From Geotalea daltonii FRC-32 (GTDB taxonomy: Bacteria > Desulfobacterota > Desulfuromonadia > Geobacterales > Geobacteraceae), in NCBI RefSeq assembly GCF_000022265.1, contig NC_011979.1, positions 2,550,001 to 2,582,000 on the forward strand: a stretch of 32,000 nt of DNA, read 5' to 3'. Made by a program: the position numbers and the translations under genes. Below are positions 6,326 to 32,000 of this stretch, piece after piece; the first letter of the stretch is position 1; each line of letters starts with the position of its first letter. Below the pieces are notes generated by a model. The model worked only from the letters and a program-made list of their open reading frames with translations. It searched no databases and was not told the origin of the DNA.

Positions 6326-9300
6326 CTATTTTCCGATGATGACCTCGCCGGTATTGGTAAATATCTTTGCCGGCAGTTCGAAAACCCGCCTGAATATGTC
6401 AAATACTCCCTTGGCCAGGTACTTCACCGGGATAGCGGAGACCTTGGGATCATCTATTTTACCCTTTGCTTCAAAGTAGGCTGTTACCAGTGTCTTGTCC
6501 TTTCCGGTAAGTATCCAACCGACAATGGGGATGCGGCTGACCACCTTGTCCACTGTCTGAAGCGGTTGAACACCGACAGTGGCATCGATTTCTTCCCTGG
6601 TCAGGTCGATTTTGCCTACACAGGAAATGTTCATGGCATCGCTATCAAGAAAAAAATCGCTGGTCGAGATTGTGCCGTCCTTGACTGCCAGAGTACCGGC
6701 AATACTGTTATATGGCATGCCGCCGGATACCATGTCCGGTAATTGCAGTTTGAGCAACTGGGATACATTGAGTATGGAAAATATTTTTGACAGTGTAGCG
6801 AATCTTCGCAGAGAGCCGTCTTCCATGTAGATCTTCAACGATCCAAGAGCTGTCCGCTTGATGTCTGCGCTGGTATTCCCTTTTGCCGAAAGCTCTCCCT
6901 GCAGACTAAGGGTTCCTGTGATTTCCTGCTTTTTCATACCGATGGCATGTGTGGCCTTTTCTGCCGAAACCCCATCCAGGTTGAAGCTGACCTGGTAATG
7001 GGGAGTGCCGTTTGATCCCGAGTCGAATCGTCCCTTGCCGGAGACATTACCGCCAAAAGCCGAGAAACCCAGTTGCTGCAGATATAATATTTTGTCTTCA
7101 AATAGTGCATCGGCTTTGAGGCCTTTAAATTCAAGGTCCCGGTATTTTCCTGAAGCTGCTTTGATTGAAGCCTTCATCTTCAGGTTAGTGGATGACTCAC
7201 TCTTGCCGGTGGGTTCCAGTTTAGACAACAACAGCAGGTCTTCAATATCCAGATTTGGAGAAGTGATGGCGACATCGATCTTTGGATTATCTATTTCCTT
7301 GACCATTCCCCTAACAGACAGGGATGTTTTCTTGATCTGGGTGGAAAGTTCCTTTATCTGCAGGTCTTTGTCTTTCAAAGAAATGGAAGCATGAAGTTTT
7401 TCAGCCAGCAGGGCTTTACCGGCTAGGTTATATCCCAAATCGGACAGATCCAGTGAAGGGGATGAGAAAGTCATGCTCAGAGTGGGATTTTTGAAGCCGG
7501 ATAAGGACCCTTTACCGGAGATGGTCGAACTGCCCATCTTGACCGATAGCTGGGATGTTTCCAACTGATCGCCTTTGAAGTGGATAACGCCGGACATGTT
7601 GCTCAGCATCTTAACCGGTTCTGGAGGCTTTACGGCAAAGCCGGAGAAGTGGATATCTCCTCCCCAGCGGAACTTGGCCAGATCGTTGCCTGGTCCTTTG
7701 CCGTGGACGGATGCCTTAAGCTTGCCTGTCGGACTGTACTGTCTGATGAAAGGGAGCATTGGCGTTATGTCCCCTGCTGAAAACATATTCGTCTGAAGGC
7801 CCAGGTTCAGGTTGTCCTGGCCCTTATAACTGTAACCGGCGCTGGCGGTAAGATGCAGAGGGCCAAGGTCGTAAGCCAGGTATGAAAGTATCGCTTCTTC
7901 CTTGTTGAGGCTTCCTCTGAAGGCTACTCTGTTGGCGCGTTTGGCCGGTTTATTGATGTAATTCCTGTAACTGTATGCAGTGTCAATAAGATTCCAGTCG
8001 CCGGAAAGATTATAACCGCTGGTGAATCCATTGCCTGCCAGGTTCAGCTCCGAATTTCCCGTAAAAGACAGGTACTTTTCGCGCCCCTGACCAAGAAGCC
8101 AGGCCACCTCCGCTTGGCGTGGGGTCATTTTCATGGTGAAAGGATAGGAGGATGGGGTCGTCAGGGGATAGTCGGCAATTTTGCCATCGAGGGTGAAAGG
8201 GGATGTGCCGAAGTTCCCCGACATGCGGATCAGGTTGAAATCCTTACCTCTCATTTCCAGGTCACCTTTGACCCTGTTGAATGTTGGAACCTGTGGGCCG
8301 AAGGAAACGATACCTTTATCAACCGTTCCTTTGATAAAGAGCACGTTATAGTTTTGCCCCAGTTCCATGTGCAGAATCTGGCTTATTCTCCCGTCAAGCC
8401 TGCCTTCATTAAGTTGGTAAGTACCACCCTTGATATGTTTTTCGATGAAGTCTGCTGTGTCGTCAACTATTATTCCATAGGGTATGTAACCGGCGAATTC
8501 CTCCAGCCTGAAAGTGGAAGTGACTGCCTGGGCAACAATGCGTGGATCTTTACTGTGCAGGTCCAGAATTGAGCAGCTTCCTTCGACATTGAGTTTGTCG
8601 ACGGTCAGATTGATGGACTTGACGGCGATGTCACGGTCAGTCAGCTCCATGGCGTAGCGAAAATGTGTGTTCCTTGGGGTCAGAACGGCATGAAATACCT
8701 GCGGGTAATCGAATCGCAAGGACGAAACCCTGACTTCTCCCTTTGAGGTGAAGGCCTCGAATTTACCTTTGACGTTCAAATCCGTATCGAAGCGACCCAT
8801 AACTTTCTTGAATGGAACATGGGCCATGTAATAAGGCCAAAATTGGGAAACATCAAAGTTGTCCGTCTTGATGTGCAAGTCAGCAATTGACTCCTTCAGT
8901 GGTCTGTCCCTGCGTGCAATCCTTACAGTACCGGAGACTGACAATTTGTTAGGCGCAGCTCCGCCTATGGATGCAGCCAGTTTGATCCGGCACTTTTTGC
9001 CCCTGGTCATATTGCCGAGATGCAGGTCGAGATCTTTTAGTCTGGTGGTCAATCCCGATGGCACTACCGACCGATCATCGAAATTGATTGTGCCTTTGTC
9101 CACCTTTATCTCTTTCAGGTGTACGGAAACCGATGAGTCTGTCTTTTCCAGGAGATCGTCAAAATTGAAGACACCTTTGTCATCCCTGCTTAAATTAATT
9201 TTTGGATGAGAGAGGATAATCTCATGGAGTGATACTCTTTTCTCCAGCAGAGGCAGCAGGTCAACCTTGAAGGTGATTTTCTCAGCGCTGACAAAATCGT

Positions 9301-9559
9301 TTGAGCCGTCCTTTTCTTTGACAATTACATTGGTGAAGGTAAACGATGGGCCGAATTTAAAAGCAAACAGACCTTTTTCGTAAGTGACTTGCCTTTTAAG
9401 CATTCTCTGGGTTTCAGCCAGAATCTGCTCTTTATAGGTGTCCAGATGGAGGAGTTTATCCAGAAGGAATGAAAGACCGCCTCCTGCTAGAACAATGGCC
9501 AGCAGAAAGGAGAAGACGATGATAATATATTTGTTTTTTGGAGTCATATGTAAATCCAT
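6326..9559 (-). CDS. AsmA/YhdP/TamB-like large envelope (lipid transport/outer membrane assembly) protein, 1077 aa
   Basis: A single N-terminal TM helix (YIIIVFSFLLAIVLAGGGLSFLL) is followed by about 1000 aa of beta-rich repetitive sequence. The C-terminal signature IPIVGWILTGKDKTLVTAYFEAKGKIDDPKVSAIP is typical of AsmA-like C-terminal regions. An alternative ATG lies at 9547, and neither start has a clear RBS. Confidence 0.85.
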   Translation of the reverse strand: MDLHMTPKNKYIIIVFSFLLAIVLAGGGLSFLLDKLLHLDTYKEQILAETQRMLKRQVTYEKGLFAFKFGPSFTFTNVIVKEKDGSNDFVSAEKITFKVDLLPLLEKRVSLHEIILSHPKINLSRDDKGVFNFDDLLEKTDSSVSVHLKEIKVDKGTINFDDRSVVPSGLTTRLKDLDLHLGNMTRGKKCRIKLAASIGGAAPNKLSVSGTVRIARRDRPLKESIADLHIKTDNFDVSQFWPYYMAHVPFKKVMGRFDTDLNVKGKFEAFTSKGEVRVSSLRFDYPQVFHAVLTPRNTHFRYAMELTDRDIAVKSINLTVDKLNVEGSCSILDLHSKDPRIVAQAVTSTFRLEEFAGYIPYGIIVDDTADFIEKHIKGGTYQLNEGRLDGRISQILHMELGQNYNVLFIKGTVDKGIVSFGPQVPTFNRVKGDLEMRGKDFNLIRMSGNFGTSPFTLDGKIADYPLTTPSSYPFTMKMTPRQAEVAWLLGQGREKYLSFTGNSELNLAGNGFTSGYNLSGDWNLIDTAYSYRNYINKPAKRANRVAFRGSLNKEEAILSYLAYDLGPLHLTASAGYSYKGQDNLNLGLQTNMFSAGDITPMLPFIRQYSPTGKLKASVHGKGPGNDLAKFRWGGDIHFSGFAVKPPEPVKMLSNMSGVIHFKGDQLETSQLSVKMGSSTISGKGSLSGFKNPTLSMTFSSPSLDLSDLGYNLAGKALLAEKLHASISLKDKDLQIKELSTQIKKTSLSVRGMVKEIDNPKIDVAITSPNLDIEDLLLLSKLEPTGKSESSTNLKMKASIKAASGKYRDLEFKGLKADALFEDKILYLQQLGFSAFGGNVSGKGRFDSGSNGTPHYQVSFNLDGVSAEKATHAIGMKKQEITGTLSLQGELSAKGNTSADIKRTALGSLKIYMEDGSLRRFATLSKIFSILNVSQLLKLQLPDMVSGGMPYNSIAGTLAVKDGTISTSDFFLDSDAMNISCVGKIDLTREEIDATVGVQPLQTVDKVVSRIPIVGWILTGKDKTLVTAYFEAKGKIDDPKVSAIPVKYLAKGVFDIFRRVFELPAKIFTNTGEVIIGK

Positions 9560-9604
9560 GCCGGACGGAATTTAAGGTATTCACGCAGTTGCCTTGTCCG
9601 CCGG

Positions 9605-9633
9605 ATTATACTCTTCCGGCTACTCAGGTGCAA
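9605..9633 (-). promoter_or_regulatory. Sigma-70-type promoter for the AsmA-like gene
   Basis: The minus strand reads TTGCAC, a 17-nt spacer, then TATAAT (perfect -10), about 45 nt upstream of the ATG at 9559. Confidence 0.55.
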
Positions 9634-9738
9634 GTTTGTCTGTCACCTGTCAAATAACCTCAAGCAGAATATTACCCTCTGCACGGGCGGTTCAAGTGTC
9701 TTGGCTGGATTTTAAACCAGGTGAATGTGGCCCTGGCC

Positions 9739-11979
9739 TTATACCCAGGCGCCGCTGATCGGCAGTTCGATGGTGAAAATGGTGCCTTTGGGCTGATTGT
9801 CCTTGGTCCTGATAAAGCCGTGGTGATCGGAGATGATGGTATTGACAATGGCCAGTCCCAGACCGGTTCCGGCTTTCTTTGTGGAAAAGTAGGGCTCGAA
9901 GAGCCTGGCGCGATCCTCGGGGAGGATGCCATGGCCAGTATCGGCCACGGTGAAGGTAACCATTTTCAACTCCCTGTTGTAGGTGCTTTCGATGATTATG
10001 GCGCCGTTACCGTCTATGGCAGCCACTGCATTATCCAAAAGATTAATCAGCACCCGCTTGATCTGGTCCCGATCCAACTGGATCATTGGAATGTTTTCAT
10101 CGGTCCTCAGTGAAAAGGTGATATTGCGATGGGCTTCCTGATACAGTGTTATCGCTTCATGCAGAATCTCGTTCAGGTTGTTGGGTGAAGGCTGTGCAGC
10201 AGGCATGCGGGCAAAGTTGGAAAATTCATCGACCAGCGTCTTCAGCTCGTCCACAGATTTGATGATCATATCGGTGCATTCATCGAAAACCTTCTCTTCC
10301 CCCTCGAACTTTGATAGGTAACGCTTTCTCAGCCTTTGTGCCGATAGCTTTATGGGGGTCAGAGGGTTCTTTATTTCGTGGGCTATTCGTCTTGCAACTT
10401 CCCGCCAGGCGGCCATGCGTTGCGCCTTGATCAATTGTGTCAGATCGTCGAAAACGACGACGGTGCCGACGAATTCATCGTTTTCATCCTTGAGAACGGT
10501 CAGATTGACGAGGAGGGTGAGCTTGGCATCGCGTATGGGTATGGTTACCTGCTTGTTGACCGTATCCTGCTGGGAAACGATGAGATCGCGCAGCATGCTC
10601 TTTACTATGTCCAGATGGACCGGCTGCAAAACCTCCCGAAAATTTTTGCCGGTAACCTTCTGGGTGTTGATGTTGAGCAGGCGCTCGGCTGACTTGTTGA
10701 CTGTTGTCAGAACGCCCTGTTTATCCACCGAAATTACCCCGGCATTTACGTTTTTCAGGACGATCTCCATGTAACGCCGCCTCTGTTCCAGCTCAAGGTT
10801 GCTGCGGCTCAATTCTTCGTTGGTATTTTTCAGGGCCAGCTGGTTGTTTCGCAAATCCTGGGTCATCTTGTTGAATGACGAAATCAGCATGCCGATCTCG
10901 TCATTGCCCTTTTCACCCAGGTGAACATCCAGGTTCCCCTCGGCAACCTGTCTGGTGGCCTCGGCCAGCTCCTGGATCGGGATGGTAAGACTTTTTGCCA
11001 GATAAACGCCGAACCAGACCGCCAGGAAAATGATCACCATGGTGATGAGAAAAAGGGTGAGTATATAGCCGGTGGTGATGGGATTTTTCAGGATCTTCAG
11101 CTGGCGGAATTCGTGGTAAGAGGTGGATATTTCCTTCATCTTGCTTACCAGGGAGTAGGGTACGTAATAATTGACAACGACGACACCCACCACATCCGCT
11201 TCATTCCAGTTGGAATGGACGGGGACTATGCCGCGGATCAGATCTGCCTTGCCTACCGAGTTGACCTTGGTTACCTGTTTTCCCTGCAGTCCGATTTTGA
11301 TGTCTTCCGACGAGGGGTTGGTAAATTCACCCAGGGGCAGCTTGGGATTGGCAGCCCTGACCAGTTCTTCCTTCTGGGATGAATAGACTTCTACTACCCC
11401 CAGATTATACTCCTTTTGCTTCTGCCTGATCACCGCCTTGAGCCGGGGCAGGTTTTCCTCGTTGAGGAGTTTCTGTTCCTTGATGATGGCGCTGATTTGC
11501 TCACCGTAGTAGAGGGCATTTGCCGCCGAAGTCTTGTAATAAGTCTGGGCAACTTCCATGGATTCATCCAGGGAGGTTTCAACCTGTTTGTTGAACCAGT
11601 TTTGGATGCTGTTGGTAATGAAGCCGGCGGAAACGAAGAACAGAAGCATTGTCGGAACCAGTGAAAGGCCGACAAAGGCAAGAACCAGCTTGGTGCGGAG
11701 CTTGGCCCCCAAAGCATTTTGGCGGTGCTCGATCATGAGCTTCGCCACATTGCGGAACACCATGAAAATGAGCAGGATGATTAGAAGTATGATGACATTG
11801 ATAATGCCGAAAATGACGATATTGTTGCCCATCGGCACTTCGGAACTCAGCTTTGAAAGATGAATTTCGGTAATGGTTAGAAATATGATAAGCAGGAGGG
11901 AAAAAGCGACAATGAATCCCTCCCGTTTTCTCTTGCGCAACTCAGCTTTAGGCAGACCTTTTTCCGTATCGTTTCCCAA
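9739..11979 (-). CDS. NtrY-like sensor histidine kinase (multi-TM N-terminus, HAMP, PAS, HisKA, HATPase), 746 aa
   Basis: HAMP region (IQELAEATRQVAEGNLDVHLGEKGNDEIGMLISSFNKMTQDL), a PAS region, the H-box ARRIAHEIKNPLTPIKLSAQRL, the N box LINLLDNAV, and G boxes DTGHGI / GTGLGLAIV. The TTG start at 11979 has AAGGAAA upstream. No response regulator gene is adjacent. Confidence 0.9.
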   Translation of the reverse strand: MGNDTEKGLPKAELRKRKREGFIVAFSLLLIIFLTITEIHLSKLSSEVPMGNNIVIFGIINVIILLIILLIFMVFRNVAKLMIEHRQNALGAKLRTKLVLAFVGLSLVPTMLLFFVSAGFITNSIQNWFNKQVETSLDESMEVAQTYYKTSAANALYYGEQISAIIKEQKLLNEENLPRLKAVIRQKQKEYNLGVVEVYSSQKEELVRAANPKLPLGEFTNPSSEDIKIGLQGKQVTKVNSVGKADLIRGIVPVHSNWNEADVVGVVVVNYYVPYSLVSKMKEISTSYHEFRQLKILKNPITTGYILTLFLITMVIIFLAVWFGVYLAKSLTIPIQELAEATRQVAEGNLDVHLGEKGNDEIGMLISSFNKMTQDLRNNQLALKNTNEELSRSNLELEQRRRYMEIVLKNVNAGVISVDKQGVLTTVNKSAERLLNINTQKVTGKNFREVLQPVHLDIVKSMLRDLIVSQQDTVNKQVTIPIRDAKLTLLVNLTVLKDENDEFVGTVVVFDDLTQLIKAQRMAAWREVARRIAHEIKNPLTPIKLSAQRLRKRYLSKFEGEEKVFDECTDMIIKSVDELKTLVDEFSNFARMPAAQPSPNNLNEILHEAITLYQEAHRNITFSLRTDENIPMIQLDRDQIKRVLINLLDNAVAAIDGNGAIIIESTYNRELKMVTFTVADTGHGILPEDRARLFEPYFSTKKAGTGLGLAIVNTIISDHHGFIRTKDNQPKGTIFTIELPISGAWV

Positions 11980-13031: not shown

Positions 13032-13221
13032 GGCAAACTCCTTTGCATAATAGTCAGTACACATATTATTTAGCAAGTTGTGGGCCATGTCTTAAAGGAG
13101 TGGATATCTGTTTTAATTTCAGCGTGTTGAGTGAAGGGTGGTGGAGCAGGGTCTGTGGCTGGAAGGTGAGAACATGTTGCAAAAAAGGTTCTCTGTGGCA
13201 AAAATGCAACAGTATTGGGAC

Positions 13222-27962: not shown

Positions 27963-29927
27963 ATGCATAGATACCTTTTCAAATTCATGAATAACCTGCG
28001 GCTTCGCTGGAAGCTGCTGGTGGTGGTTCTGCCGCTGGTTGTCATTCCCATCTTCCTCGTTGGCGGAGTGATCGGCTATATTTCCACCCAGCAGGCCTAT
28101 CTGGGCATAACCCAGACCAGTAAGGCTGATTTGGAGCACATGGCCAGCTTCACCATTGATCTTCTCAAGTCTCACCATCAGCAATTTCAGGTCTACAAGC
28201 AGGACAAGGAGCGCAGTTTCAACCTTGAACTGGCGACACTGACAAACCTGGCCTACAATATGGTGGAAGCCGAACATCGGCAGATGAAGAGCGGCCACAT
28301 CGATCCGGCGACCGCCATGCTTGAGGCCCGAAAGGCTCTGAAAAAGGTCAACGTGGGGGAGACCGGCTATATTTATGCCATGTCCAGTAAGGGTGATCTG
28401 CAGGTCCACATTGCCCGCGAAGGCGACAACGTCTATAACGAGAAGGACGAAAACGGCAGATACTTCATCCGCGAGATGTGCCAGCGGGCGCTCAAATCCA
28501 GATCGGGAGAAGTTCTTTTCATTGTCTATCCCTGGCGAAACGCCATTCTCGGGGACAAGGCGCCGCGGAAAAAGGTTGTTGCTTACCGGTATTTCAAGGA
28601 GTGGGACTGGATTATTGCTGCAGGCGGTTATCTGGAAGAGACCTACGGGGATGTCAATTTTGAAAAGCGCGCCTTTGCCGAGTTGAAGGCAAAGATAAAA
28701 GCTAAGCAGGTGGGTAAGACCGGCTATATCTTCTGCATGGACAGCAAGGGTAACTTTACCGTTCATCCCGGCGGCGAGGGGAGAAATTTCCTCGATGCCA
28801 AAGATTCAGACGGGAATGAGTTTATCCGGGAGATGTGTGTCAACAAGACCGGTTGGATCCGCTATCCGTGGAAAAATGCCGGGGACAGCGTGCCGCGGAT
28901 GAAAATCGTACGTTATGAGTATTTCCAGCCATGGGACTGGGTTGTGGCGGTCGGCTCCTATGAAGATGAATTTTATCAAGAAGCCAAGGATATCAATCGG
29001 CGCATCCTTGAAAGCATGATCGTTCTCACCATCCTTGTCTGCATCATTGCCGCGGCGCTGGTCTTTCTCGCTTCCAAGGTGCTTACCGATCCCATCAACC
29101 ACATGATCGAGGTCATCCGCAAGGTAAAGCAGGGGCGTTTCAATGAGCGGATGGCTGTGGATGCCGACGACGAGCTGGGCGAACTGGCCAAGGCCTTCAA
29201 CCACATGACCAGGATCATCAACCGCAACAAGGAGATGGCGGCCAATCTGGCCCAGCAAGGAAAGATGGCCTCGCTGGGGGTTCTTTCTTCAGGGGTGGCC
29301 CATGAGATCAATAATCCACTCGGGGTAATACTGGGCTATGCCGGATACCTGGAAGGAAAGCTGTCACCGGATGACCCCAATTACCGGTTTGTCCATGAGA
29401 TCAAGCGGGAAAGCAAACGCTGCAAGAAGATCGTCCAGGACCTGCTCAGTTATGCCCGGACCCCGAAACCGACTCTGGAAAATACCGATATCAATGCTCT
29501 GCTCGATCAGATCGTCGATTTTGCCGCCAATCATACTGATATGCACCACGTTTCCGTGGTAAAGGAATTCGCTGGTGAGTTGCCCACCATCATGGCGGAC
29601 GGGGATCAGCTGCGCCAGGTGGCCATCAACCTGATCCTCAATTCCGGCGCTGCCATGCAGAGCGGTGGTCGTCTCATTGTCGGCAGCAGGCTTGAGAACA
29701 GCTTCATCTTTCTGACTTTTGCCGACAATGGGGCAGGTATCTCCCCTGAAAACCTGGAAAAGATCTTCGAGCCGTTTTTCACCACCAAGACTAAAGGAAC
29801 GGGCTTGGGCCTGGCCATTACCAAGCAGATCATCGAGCAGCATCAGGGGGAGATTACCATAGAGAGTGAGCAGGGGCGGGGCACGACGGTCGTGGTAAAA
29901 CTTCCCCTTGAGCGGGAAGAATTTTAA
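27963..29927 (+). CDS. Sensor histidine kinase with two tandem sCache_2-like periplasmic modules, TM, HAMP, HisKA and HATPase, 654 aa
   Basis: Internal duplication: [15 protein letters not shown]...YPWRN...[23 protein letters not shown] and [16 protein letters not shown]...YPWKN...[27 protein letters not shown] ([42 protein letters not shown]). H-box [13 protein letters not shown] boxes DNGAGI and GTGLGLAI. Confidence 0.9.
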
Positions 29928-29968: not shown

Positions 29969-31351
29969 ATGAGCGATGCAAAACGAGTGATGGTGATCGA
30001 TAACGAGGAAGGGCTGTGCCGGATGATGGAGGCGGTCCTGCTTGATAACGGCTATAGGACCAAGTCGTACCTGAGATCCTTCGAGGCGGTGGAGGAGTTC
30101 GAGGCGGGACAATGGGACCTGGTGGTTACGGATATAAAAATGCCGGTGATGGATGGACTGGAAGTACTGCAAAGGCTGAAGGTGAAGGATCCTGCCATCC
30201 CGGTAATCATGGTGACAGCGTATGCCACGGTGGAAATGTCCATTCAGGCTCTACGCCGTGGTGCCTATGACATGTTGACCAAACCCTTCGAACCGGAGGA
30301 GCTCCTGTATCGGGTGAAAAACGCCCTGAAACATAACCAGTTGATCGTGGAAAACCGGGAATTGCGGGAAGAACTGGTGGGAAAATTCCGCTTTGACAAT
30401 ATCATCGGCGCTTCCGACTCGCTTAAAGCAGTACTGGAAAGGGTGGAGAAAATTGCCATCAGGGACACCTCGGTTTTGATCACCGGCGAGTCCGGAACCG
30501 GGAAGGAGTTGATCGCCCAGGCCATCCACTACAACTCCCTGCGCAAGGAAAACAAGTTCATGGCCATCAACTGTGGCGCCCTGCCGGAATCACTGCTGGA
30601 AAGTGAACTTTTCGGCTACAAAAAGGGTGCTTTCACCGGGGCCAAGGAGAACCGACAGGGGCTTTTGGAGGCGGCAGACGGCGGAACCCTTTTCCTCGAC
30701 GAGGTTGGGAACCTGCCCATGAATGTGCAGAAAACCCTGCTCAGATTCCTCCAGGAACAGGAATTTCATCGGATTGGCGATACAACCCCGACCAAGGTGG
30801 ATGTCCGCATACTCTCTGCCACAAACTCTGATCTGAAGCAGGCAGTTAAAAACGGAGGGTTCCGTGAGGATCTCTACTATCGGCTTAATGTGGTAAATAT
30901 TCACCTTCCCCCCCTGCGTGAAAGGAAAGCGGATATCCCCCTGCTGGCAGCCCACTTCATTGCCCTGCAGAACAAGAAGTTCGATACCTCTATCAAGGGC
31001 CTTTCCCCTGAGGCGATGGAGGCAGTTCTTTCATATGACTGGTCAGGCAATATCCGCCAGTTGAAAAATGTGATCGAGGCATGTCTCGCCATGGAGACCG
31101 GCGAATACATCGGCCTGCCTATCATCTCCCAGTTCATAGAGCTTCCTTCCACCCATGAAGAAGGCCAGACTTCGCTGGATGAGGGAGAATACAACAGGGC
31201 TCTTTCCCGCTTCGAAACCGATTATCTGAAGGGACTGCTGCGCAAGAACTGCGGCAACATAGAGGCCGCGGCCCGCGAGGCTGGCATGAACATGGCTACC
31301 ATCTACCGCAAGATCAAGAAATACAACATCAAGAAAGAAGACTACTGCTGA
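29969..31351 (+). CDS. Sigma-54-dependent response regulator (REC, AAA+ bEBP, Fis-type HTH; NtrC family), 460 aa
   Basis: REC domain (DLVVTDIKMPVMDG). Walker A GESGTGKE. The GAFTGA loop is present as GAFTGA. ESELFGY, Walker B LFLDEV, and RQLKNVIE. The C-terminal HTH is NIEAAAREAGMNMATIYRKIKKY. Confidence 0.94.
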   Translation: MSDAKRVMVIDNEEGLCRMMEAVLLDNGYRTKSYLRSFEAVEEFEAGQWDLVVTDIKMPVMDGLEVLQRLKVKDPAIPVIMVTAYATVEMSIQALRRGAYDMLTKPFEPEELLYRVKNALKHNQLIVENRELREELVGKFRFDNIIGASDSLKAVLERVEKIAIRDTSVLITGESGTGKELIAQAIHYNSLRKENKFMAINCGALPESLLESELFGYKKGAFTGAKENRQGLLEAADGGTLFLDEVGNLPMNVQKTLLRFLQEQEFHRIGDTTPTKVDVRILSATNSDLKQAVKNGGFREDLYYRLNVVNIHLPPLRERKADIPLLAAHFIALQNKKFDTSIKGLSPEAMEAVLSYDWSGNIRQLKNVIEACLAMETGEYIGLPIISQFIELPSTHEEGQTSLDEGEYNRALSRFETDYLKGLLRKNCGNIEAAAREAGMNMATIYRKIKKYNIKKEDYC

Positions 31352-31379
31352 TTAACTGAAGAATTCACCTTTCCCCGTA

Positions 31380-31395
31380 TTTGCAGATTTGCAAA
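31380..31395. promoter_or_regulatory. Candidate upstream activator site 1: TTTGCA-gatt-TGCAAA
   Basis: Perfect 6-bp half-sites in inverted orientation with a 4-bp spacer. This is one of three related palindromes upstream of the sigma-54 promoter. Confidence 0.55.
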
Positions 31396-31408
31396 AAACA
31401 ATAGTGGC

Positions 31409-31424
31409 TTCGCATTTCTGCAAA
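31409..31424. promoter_or_regulatory. Candidate upstream activator site 2: TTCGCA-tttc-TGCAAA
   Basis: Same architecture as site 1 with one mismatch. Its centre lies 29 bp from the centre of site 1. Confidence 0.5.
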
Positions 31425-31515
31425 AAGCACCATGTATGTCCCCTCCATCAATGTAACTTCATAATAATACAATGCTTTTATGGTTCATGCTATCACCTGG
31501 AACCTGTTAATCTGC

Positions 31516-31531
31516 CTTGCACATCTGCAAA
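31516..31531. promoter_or_regulatory. Candidate upstream activator site 3: CTTGCA-catc-TGCAAA
   Basis: TTGCA-N4-TGCAA is perfect here. Its centre lies about 85 bp upstream of the -24 element. Confidence 0.5.
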
Positions 31532-31605
31532 AGGCCGCCCCTCCATTTTTTGGATATTTCTGCCTAAGTATCTGTTACGTAAAGTATTTATTGTTAGTTT
31601 TCCCT

Positions 31606-31623
31606 TTGGTACGGGGGTTGCTT
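31606..31623 (+). promoter_or_regulatory. Sigma-54 (-24/-12) promoter
   Basis: TTGGTACGGGGGTTGCTT compared with the consensus YTGGCACG-N4-TTGCW. GG is at 31608-31609 and GC at 31620-31621, with exact spacing and a single C-to-T deviation. The predicted TSS is near 31632-31634. Confidence 0.75.
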
Positions 31624-31744
31624 ATACTGTTTACAGTTGCTCCTTTCATTGTAGGGGATGATATCGGTGATGTTGGGAGGCTGATCCGATGTCATCCTGT
31701 ACAGCTACCAGCAAAGCCTTCAGGCTTACACATATGAGGTCCCA

Positions 31745-31936
31745 ATGAAGGTTGAGACAGTTTGTCCCTTCTACGGAAAAAACGATGACTTTTGCGATGT
31801 GGGGTGCGGTTACATATCGCCGCACGACGTCAATCAGATCATAAAGTATTGCAGTTGTCGGTACAAAGAGTGTCTGAAATACCAGGAACTGTCTGACCGA
31901 CTGCCCAAGGAAAGTTTCGAACCAGCAAAATGCTGA
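31745..31936 (+). CDS. Small Cys-rich protein of unknown function, 63 aa (7 Cys)
   Basis: The ATG at 31745 lies 5 nt after GAGG (31736-31739). It is the first ORF downstream of the sigma-54 promoter. Cys residues are at 7, 17, 21, 36, 38, 43 and 63 (CPFY-x7-C-x3-C ... C-x-C-x4-C). No family is recognised. Confidence 0.6.
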   Translation: MKVETVCPFYGKNDDFCDVGCGYISPHDVNQIIKYCSCRYKECLKYQELSDRLPKESFEPAKC

Positions 31937-31956
31937 TTTACTAAGGAGGTAACACC

Positions 31957-32000
31957 ATGCTTTACAATCTTAGTCTGCATCTCAATGCTTTTTATGTGCC
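31957..32000 (+). CDS. 5' end of an unidentified gene (MLYNLSLHLNAFYV...), truncated by the window end
   Basis: The ATG at 31957 lies 7 nt after a strong AAGGAGG (31943-31949) and 20 nt after the stop of the Cys-rich ORF, so it is probably co-transcribed. Confidence 0.45.
   Translation, partial: MLYNLSLHLNAFYV

Follow-up and report, generated by a model that had tools for sequence, protein, structure and literature searches.

The window considered here is a stretch of 32,000 nucleotides from the Geotalea daltonii FRC-32 genome (contig NC_011979.1, positions 2,550,001 to 2,582,000). Towards its downstream end it encodes a sensor histidine kinase and an NtrC-type sigma-54 activator, and these are followed by three palindromic sites, a sigma-54 promoter, and the start of an operon for small and membrane proteins. 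We are fairly confident that these elements form a two-component/sigma-54 switch that drives the membrane operon and that probably responds to acetate. The regulatory module is an ordinary one of its kind, and the novelty sits in its output.

Palindromic sites and a sigma-54 promoter ahead of the operon

The regulator gene ends at 31351, and the 63-amino acid (aa) open reading frame (ORF) that opens the operon starts at 31745. These ORF boundaries confirm the non-coding stretch of 393 bp that an earlier inspection of the letters alone, here called the sequence-only reading, had described between them. Three copies of a TTGCA-N4-TGCAA palindrome, none of them assigned to a strand, lie in this gap at exactly the coordinates that reading gave. 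They comprise a distal pair of candidate upstream activating sites (UAS) at 31380-31395 (TTTGCAgattTGCAAA, with a counterpart in most of 77 orthologous loci) and 31409-31424 (TTCGCAtttcTGCAAA, with one mismatch and 29 bp from the first), and a proximal site at 31516-31531 (CTTGCAcatcTGCAAA). Downstream of them on the forward strand is a sigma-54 promoter at 31606-31623 (TTGGTACGGGGGTTGCTT), whose −24/−12 core at 31607-31622 of the same strand (TGGTACgggggTTGCT) has the form TGGTAC-N5-TTGCT and agrees with TGGCAC-N5-TTGCW at 10 of 11 positions. The spacing is that of the consensus and both the GG at −24 and the GC at −12 are present, which upholds the earlier description of a promoter one base off consensus with exact spacing. 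The centres of sites 1, 2, and 3 fall 220, 191, and 84 bp from the −24 GG, all on its upstream side, a geometry that fits the 85 to 230 bp from the −24 element originally proposed.

A sigma-54 consensus with up to one mismatch is expected 2.09 times per window and alone is not rare. An expectation of about two such matches favours the view that the palindromes and the promoter arose by chance in an AT-rich spacer and that an unrecognised sigma-70 promoter reads the operon. The palindromes tell against that view, with 8 matches to TTGCA-N4-TGCAA at up to one mismatch in the 32-kb window versus 1.82 expected, a count reached by none of 100 shuffles; 3 of the 8 are packed into 152 bp of the gap between regulator and operon. 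The exact TGCA-N4-TGCA core has 4 matches in the window against 0.73 expected, and TGGYAC-N5-TTGCW has its sole exact match in the window at 31607-31622. A search of the forward strand of this region found no sigma-70-like promoter, which also speaks against chance. The combination of three palindromes with the TGGTAC-N5-TTGCT promoter is far beyond chance.

The comparison across species draws on 80 species-level Geobacterales loci, 79 of them usable for upstream analysis. The four-gene cluster is found in all 80, and a sigma-54 promoter (score of at least 9 out of 11, with GG and GC required by the design of the scan) stands upstream of its first gene, which encodes a Cys-rich protein, in 77 of the 79; T occupies the fourth promoter position in 37 of these 77. 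The palindromes, whose conservation in orthologous loci had been named beforehand as a test able to refute the proposal, recur at least twice in 71 of the 77 promoter-bearing loci. Their half-sites stay the same from locus to locus, with an N4 spacer that is free to vary. A flanking T is kept in 160 of 204 sites and a flanking A in 179 of 204, neither of which was part of the search pattern, and the half-sites with these flanks give a 16-bp consensus of TTTGCA-N4-TGCAAA. Ahead of the operon the sites reach a density of 5.85 per kb, a 95-fold enrichment over the 0.061 per kb counted in the other 1.1 Mb of retrieved sequence. The distal pair is spaced by 29 to 33 bp in 46 of the 52 loci with at least three sites, and the proximal site keeps distances from the −24 GG that cluster near 84, 95, 106, and 118 bp among loci that are related and not independent, a pattern that points to a helical-face constraint. 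Conservation over 77 loci with a free spacer and the 95-fold enrichment stand directly against a chance origin, which these comparative data effectively refute and which we regard as vanishingly improbable.

Between the proximal palindrome and the promoter, the segment 31560-31599 has 30% G+C against approximately 40% to 45% nearby. The part of the sequence-only reading that described an AT-rich segment is therefore real, but the DNA bend it suggested there is weakly backed. The best match to an integration host factor (IHF) site within the segment, at 31580-31592 on the reverse strand (AATAAATACTTTA, one mismatch to WATCAANNNNTTR), is weak, and IHF-like matches with up to one mismatch occur in 29 of 77 loci versus approximately 10% of shuffles, at positions that are not conserved. 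Far from the operon, a sigma-54-like match at 13072-13087 on the reverse strand was considered as a second promoter and rejected, as it overlaps the annotated lpxC start and lies at chance level; a one-mismatch palindrome at 13196-13209, 110 bp upstream of this match, is also at chance level.

The kinase, the regulator and their link to the sites

The kinase (654 aa, 27963-29927, forward strand) has a dCache_2 domain between two transmembrane segments, followed by HAMP, HisKA, and HATPase_c domains. The dCache_2 match (PF08269) covers residues 42-338 with an E-value of 1.4e-68 and 231.7 bits against a gathering cut-off of 26.5, and hydrophobic segments at approximately 18-40 and 350-370 bracket it. 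The regulator (460 aa, 29969-31351, forward strand) combines receiver (REC), AAA+, and HTH_8 domains. Its Response_reg match (E = 3.7e-27) spans residues 7-116 and includes Asp55 within VVTDIKMP, its Sigma54_activat match (E = 3.5e-73) covers the whole profile from 1 to 168, and it carries the Walker A sequence GESGTGKE, the GAFTGA loop, AAA_lid_14, and a C-terminal HTH_8 (Pfam E = 1e-6). By this domain content it is a complete response regulator of the NtrC-type bacterial enhancer-binding proteins (bEBPs), so that both the tandem-Cache kinase and the NtrC-type activator named in the sequence-only reading are found with all their expected parts. An exact look-up in G. daltonii FRC-32 identified the kinase as ACM20686 and the regulator as ACM20687. 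In Geotalea toluenoxydans and a second assembly (loci L002 and L003), a toxin-antitoxin-like two-gene cassette of TumE and HVO_A0114 lies between the kinase and regulator genes (7503-8163 and 7600-8164, respectively); this cassette is absent from the window.

The closest named models for the two proteins come from the AtoS/AtoC-atoDAEB system of Escherichia coli, with which the Geotalea module shares a predicted sigma-54 dependence and a possible connection to short-chain carboxylate metabolism. The top NCBIfam model for the regulator is AtoC (E = 1.1e-134) at 449.6 against an equivalog cut-off of 714, ahead of NtrC (415.2 versus 558.6), GlrR (388 versus 763), and ZraR (365.4 versus 760). The top model for the kinase, AtoS, scores 247.8 against a cut-off of 646 and covers only transmitter residues 421-652, thus omitting the dCache_2 sensor. 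The targets differ as well. With every score below its NCBIfam cut-off, and those of AtoS and AtoC far below, assignments as AtoC/AtoS, NtrC, ZraR, or GlrR equivalogs were rejected.

The kinase and regulator genes lie directly upstream of the operon in approximately half of the loci, convergent and downstream of it in some, and elsewhere in the rest. This scatter, together with other enhancer-binding proteins (EBPs) of 40% to 45% identity that also neighbour pairs of TTGCA-N4-TGCAA sites on metagenome contigs (L099, L152, L180, L183, and L212), lends some support to a different account. On that account the palindromes are operators for another protein, such as a nearby IclR-type regulator or a global factor, another EBP activates the promoter, and the kinase and regulator control something else. 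Several observations oppose it. On contig L095, a regulator of 57% identity is followed by 3 sites, a GGGCACggtcaTTGCT sigma-54 promoter, and the genes for the 83-aa and 349-aa membrane proteins of the operon without the Cys-rich gene. On L126, an orthologous kinase (64% identity) and regulator (68%) are followed by 3 sites and a TGGTATgggccTTGCT promoter ahead of a monocarboxylate transporter of the SfMCT type in the major facilitator superfamily (MFS; 362 bits against a cut-off of 320), so that the sites accompany the regulator orthologue to new targets. In addition, 22 of 37 loci have a single TTGCA-N4-TGCAA site 56 to 195 bp ahead of the kinase start. Furthermore, the periodicity of approximately 10.5 to 11.5 bp relative to −24 fits UAS and not operators, and most of the loci in which the motif is retained have no IclR gene. 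We consider control by another protein very improbable.

The sites are linked comparatively to this regulator because they follow its orthologues to L095 and L126, because they adjoin the kinase gene, and because the helix-turn-helix segment of the regulator, GN[IV]E.AA[RK].AG.NM.T[IVM]YRK[IM]K[KR]Y, is nearly invariant among orthologues; from this we infer that the regulator binds them. The site ahead of the kinase gene suggests autoregulation. Loci with this site include L012, L015, L025, L033, L038, L051, L052, L059, and L072; the palindrome is absent upstream of the kinase in the window, where the kinase gene follows a DUF294 gene after a gap of 131 bp. The module on L126 occupies 1886-2470 on the reverse strand, with a leader of approximately 270 nt and the transporter in place of the membrane operon. 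Small Nitro_FeMo-Co and/or DUF5320 genes lie downstream of the site-flanked EBPs on L099, L152, and L212. A metagenome scan for double palindromes returned, among the matches listed, mostly unrelated DNA, the relevant contigs being L100, L122, L126, and L151, and does not define the regulon.

A conserved operon and its structured leader

The operon continues past the end of the window and was followed there on Logan contig L001, whose sequence matches the window exactly wherever shared stretches were read (window position = L001 position + 25272). The first gene (Geob_2334, 31745-31936, forward strand) encodes the 63-aa soluble Cys-rich protein and is followed by a gene for a 40-aa peptide with a single transmembrane segment, which starts at ATG 31957 on the forward strand and is cut by the window end at 32000. 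Beyond the window, in equivalent coordinates from L001, lie genes for an 83-aa protein with two transmembrane segments (Geob_2336, approximately 32060-32311) and for a 349-aa polytopic membrane protein (approximately 32476-33525), and then a strong terminator hairpin (approximately 33554-33583). The sequence-only reading had taken the gene cut by the window end as a target; it is indeed part of the operon, but it encodes merely the 40-aa peptide, and the two larger genes lie beyond it. That reading had also proposed extending the contig past 32000 and searching the downstream products with hidden Markov models, and had been unable to assign the targets to any family. The extension yielded the three further genes and the terminator described here, and the searches matched none of the 63-aa, 40-aa, 83-aa, and 349-aa products to a Pfam or NCBIfam model.

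The target operon is better conserved across genera than the adjacent regulator, kinase, or ActP. The 349-aa protein is 79% to 96% identical among Geobacter, Geotalea, Geomonas, Citrifermentans, Oryzomonas, Trichlorobacter, and Geoanaerobacter, and the 83-aa protein is exactly 83 aa long in every Geobacterales locus; some clades have lost the 40-aa peptide or carry a shorter form of it. A profile search with the 349-aa family through 1.84 billion representative proteins returned only 22 clusters. The few distant full-length relatives (28% to 53% identity) are each preceded by an 83-aa-like gene, and because this order never breaks, the 83-aa/349-aa pair represents the conserved core of the system. 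The pair is scattered over Desulfuromonadia, Firmicutes, and Thermoplasmatota. The Cys-rich protein, with five invariant Cys residues at 7, 17, 21, 36, and 43, occurs in all Geobacterales loci and has no relatives outside them; no Pfam, NCBIfam, or Protein Data Bank (PDB) relative was found, including by comparing its profile with PDB sequences and Pfam. Its gene is absent from L095 and from the archaeal and Firmicutes pairs, and because the more distant pairs lack it, it is by comparative evidence an add-on and not part of the core.

An initial AlphaFold2 (AF2) model of the 349-aa protein built from 22 close homologues was unusable, with a predicted local distance difference test score (pLDDT) of 47.5. 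After five divergent relatives were added, the model reached a pLDDT of 77.7 and a predicted template-modelling score (pTM) of 0.79, and it predicts an N-terminal transmembrane helix, a small periplasmic beta-rich domain, and approximately seven more helices. A Foldseek search of the model against the PDB gave nothing significant (best E = 0.24, template-modelling score 0.14). Descent of the 83-aa protein from a DUF485/YjcH-like ancestor was rejected (hhalign probability 0.2%), and an internal repeat in the 349-aa protein was not significant (E = 0.012, probability 3.5%). The two genes are approximately 13 bp apart in most non-Geotalea loci. In Geotalea they are separated by a 165-bp spacer with the inverted repeat GGCGTAGCgcTGCTACGCC (L001 7040-7203; window equivalent approximately 32312-32475). 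A c7-type cytochrome gene is convergent to the operon.

Between the promoter and the first gene lies a predicted 5′ leader of approximately 112 nt (31633-31744, forward strand), with a minimum free energy of −38.8 kcal/mol (z = −2.2). It contains a 5′ box, CAGTTGCTCCTTT (31634-31646), with the potential to base-pair with the GAGG of the Shine-Dalgarno sequence at 31736-31739, and a long hairpin at 31650-31703. Geotalea/Geobacter-type loci with long leaders (100 to 125 nt) conserve a 5′ box, CAGTTRCTCCTT, able to pair with the Shine-Dalgarno sequence, and their hairpin stems covary beneath a conserved apical loop that reads T-GACG-A in one group and GTTGGGAGGC in the group to which the window belongs. 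Clades with leaders of 31 to 66 nt have neither box nor hairpin, and no Rfam family came close to threshold when the intergenic region and the operon were scanned. The structured leader may be a translational control element, which suggests a second, post-transcriptional layer of control, and it indirectly supports a transcription start at the predicted promoter.

Acetate as the candidate signal

The second Cache module of the kinase (residues approximately 230-341) matches the sCache_2 sensors of the chemoreceptors 2qhk, 4exo, 4k08, and 5g4y, with E-values from 5e-11 to 1.5e-8. In 4K08, acetate is contacted by Tyr94, Trp96, His107, Tyr147, Trp149, and Lys160 (PMC3831638). Five of these six pocket residues are identical in the kinase (Tyr, His, Tyr, Trp, and Lys), the exception being Trp96, which is replaced by Phe; the kinase motif YiF...H aligns with YfW...H of 4K08 and YpW...K with YlW...K, each with the same 13-residue spacing. 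Module 2 resembles the C2-C3 carboxylate sensors Adeh_3718 (4K08), 2QHK/4EXO of Vibrio, and 5G4Y of Pseudomonas. Those chemoreceptors are single-module proteins and the Geotalea protein is a double-module dCache_2 histidine kinase, for which the ligand is a prediction.

Other genes associated with the motif carry the same theme. In L082 and L021, three palindromes and a TGGTAT-N5-TTGCT promoter stand upstream of a gene for a 209-aa acetate channel of the AceTr/SatP type (Pfam Gpr1_Fun34_YaaH; NCBIfam AceTr_1, 143 bits against a cut-off of 50), and exact palindromes away from the upstream region of the operon lie nearly all before satP or the kinase gene. The clusters upstream of satP are at 5270-5563 in L082 and 7258-7540 in L021, with the promoter TGGTATgtta(c/g)TTGCT, and the L082 satP gene adjoins acyl-CoA ligase and DUF294 genes. 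The core pair keeps similar company in more distant bacteria and archaea. An acetate-CoA ligase gene lies immediately upstream of it in L087 and L088, a 78-aa/360-aa pair forms an apparent operon with acetate-CoA ligase in a Thermoplasmata archaeon (L216, 721-12237), the alpha subunit of ADP-forming acetyl-CoA synthetase is encoded immediately downstream of it on another archaeal contig (L091), and an SfMCT-type transporter gene immediately precedes it in Firmicutes (L092, L218-L220). The L216 pair is flanked by genes for formate-tetrahydrofolate (THF) ligase, methylene-THF dehydrogenase/cyclohydrolase, a molybdopterin oxidoreductase, FlpD, and HdrA-like proteins, which together look like a C1/acetate island. 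The organic-acid signal that the sequence-only reading had offered purely as inference is strengthened by the AceTr/SatP and SfMCT targets and by the 4K08-like Cache pocket.

A competing explanation accepts the module as real and takes its signal and output to be unrelated to acetate, the signal being some other small molecule and the operon serving metal or redox handling or envelope stress. The five invariant Cys of the first product are typical of metal or Fe-S binding, a c7-type cytochrome gene faces the operon, dCache_2 and sCache_2 domains accept a wide range of ligands, the acetate of 4K08 is possibly an artefact, actP lacks the motif, and the 349-aa protein is unlike any known transporter. 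Set against these points, the motif otherwise targets genes for an acetate channel (AceTr) and a monocarboxylate transporter (SfMCT), and in Thermoplasmata, another archaeon, and Firmicutes the pair has a gene for acetate-CoA ligase, ADP-forming acetyl-CoA synthetase, or an MCT as its neighbour. The Cys-rich gene is missing from the distant pairs and hence is an add-on. We judge a role unrelated to acetate unlikely.

Several observations weigh against the acetate-responsive switch or parts of it. The ligand assignment rests on comparison of pocket residues with 4K08, whose own ligand is uncertain, as its authors call the assignment of acetate provisional and possibly an artefact of the crystallisation buffer (PMC3831638). 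The genes yjcH-actP-DUF294 fit the carboxylate theme by their position, as they flank the system in the window and, in Geomonas and Citrifermentans, come immediately after the operon. Where the region ahead of yjcH-actP was inspected, in Geomonas and in the window, it showed neither a TTGCA-N4-TGCAA site nor a sigma-54 promoter; the canonical acetate permease ActP is apparently outside the regulon. With the regulator away from the operon in approximately half of the genomes, its pairing with the sites rests on co-occurrence, and by its distribution the TTGCA half-site is not exclusive to this regulator and is common to other EBP subfamilies. The case for an IHF site in the AT-rich segment is weak. 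A transport role of the 83-aa/349-aa pair would be the least certain part of the reading, being a matter of guilt by association for proteins with no fold match and no significant repeat. A literature search found no mention of Geob_2332-2337, including any transcription start site, binding, or expression data.

In Geomonas anaerohicana (L024), the operon terminator and yjcH-actP are separated by an 860-bp spacer (9053-9912) that contains another palindrome, TGCGAC-N13-GTCGCA, at approximately 9435-9460, and actP appears to be under separate control there.

In circuit layout, the acetate-responsive switch proposed here resembles DctB/DctD-dctA of Rhizobium and Sinorhizobium, which senses C4-dicarboxylates and has tandem UAS approximately 100 to 150 bp upstream of the −24/−12 promoter. 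Both consist of a sensor kinase with a tandem PDC/Cache-type periplasmic domain and an NtrC-type sigma-54 activator, both have tandem palindromic UAS before a −24/−12 promoter, and in both the regulatory genes lie beside the target, which in DctBD is a carboxylate transport gene. They differ in the sequence of the binding site, in the ligand (a predicted C2-C3 monocarboxylate here versus a C4-dicarboxylate), and in the targets, which are not DctA but the four-gene operon and, in relatives, SatP/MCT-type genes. Membership in the DctB/DctD-dctA system was rejected, as no DctA-type target was found. The pair is similarly connected by adjacency or co-regulation with ActP/YjcH (SSF), SatP/AceTr (GPR1/FUN34/YaaH), and MCT-type MFS transporters, but is related to none of them in sequence or in fold.

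We propose that the periplasmic dCache_2 domain binds a C2-C3 monocarboxylate, most likely acetate, and that the kinase would then pass a phosphoryl group to Asp55 of the regulator, as its domain set suggests. The regulator would assemble on the three TTTGCA-N4-TGCAAA sites, with the distal pair approximately three helical turns apart and the third site approximately 84 bp from the promoter. DNA looping, possibly assisted by a bend, would then let the AAA+ domain, through its GAFTGA loop, open the closed complex of sigma-54 at TGGTAC-N5-TTGCT, an activation step that is established bEBP biology. The resulting transcript would start at approximately 31633 and carry the structured leader and the coding sequences for the 63-, 40-, 83-, and 349-aa products, which are probably co-transcribed. 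In the final and least certain step, the 83-aa/349-aa pair may take up or otherwise handle acetate, or some other monocarboxylate, at the membrane, which would make the system part of an acetate-acquisition regulon together with the SatP-type and MCT-type transporters of related genomes. A more specific version, possible though rather doubtful, is that the pair, the five-Cys protein, and the 40-aa peptide constitute an unrecognised acetate/monocarboxylate transporter or acetate-coupled membrane machine of novel fold, and that the kinase and regulator are a dedicated acetate sensor setting uptake capacity in Geobacter-type metal reducers.

In sediments, during bioremediation, and on electrodes, Geobacter-type bacteria rely on acetate as their main electron donor. 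Acetate sensing in these bacteria is not covered in the searchable papers, no publication on an acetate-responsive regulator in Geobacterales was found in the literature search, and the paper on the RpoN regulon of G. sulfurreducens does not mention apl or symporter genes. The kinase ACM20686 and regulator ACM20687 are predicted to form a candidate acetate sensor with a defined 16-bp motif and a small regulon of monocarboxylate transport genes. Their target operon is highly conserved across genera yet falls outside described families and folds, and its unannotated membrane pair accompanies acetate metabolism in three phyla. The position of this core pair beside acetate-activating enzymes in archaea and Firmicutes points to an overlooked, general membrane-step function in acetate metabolism.

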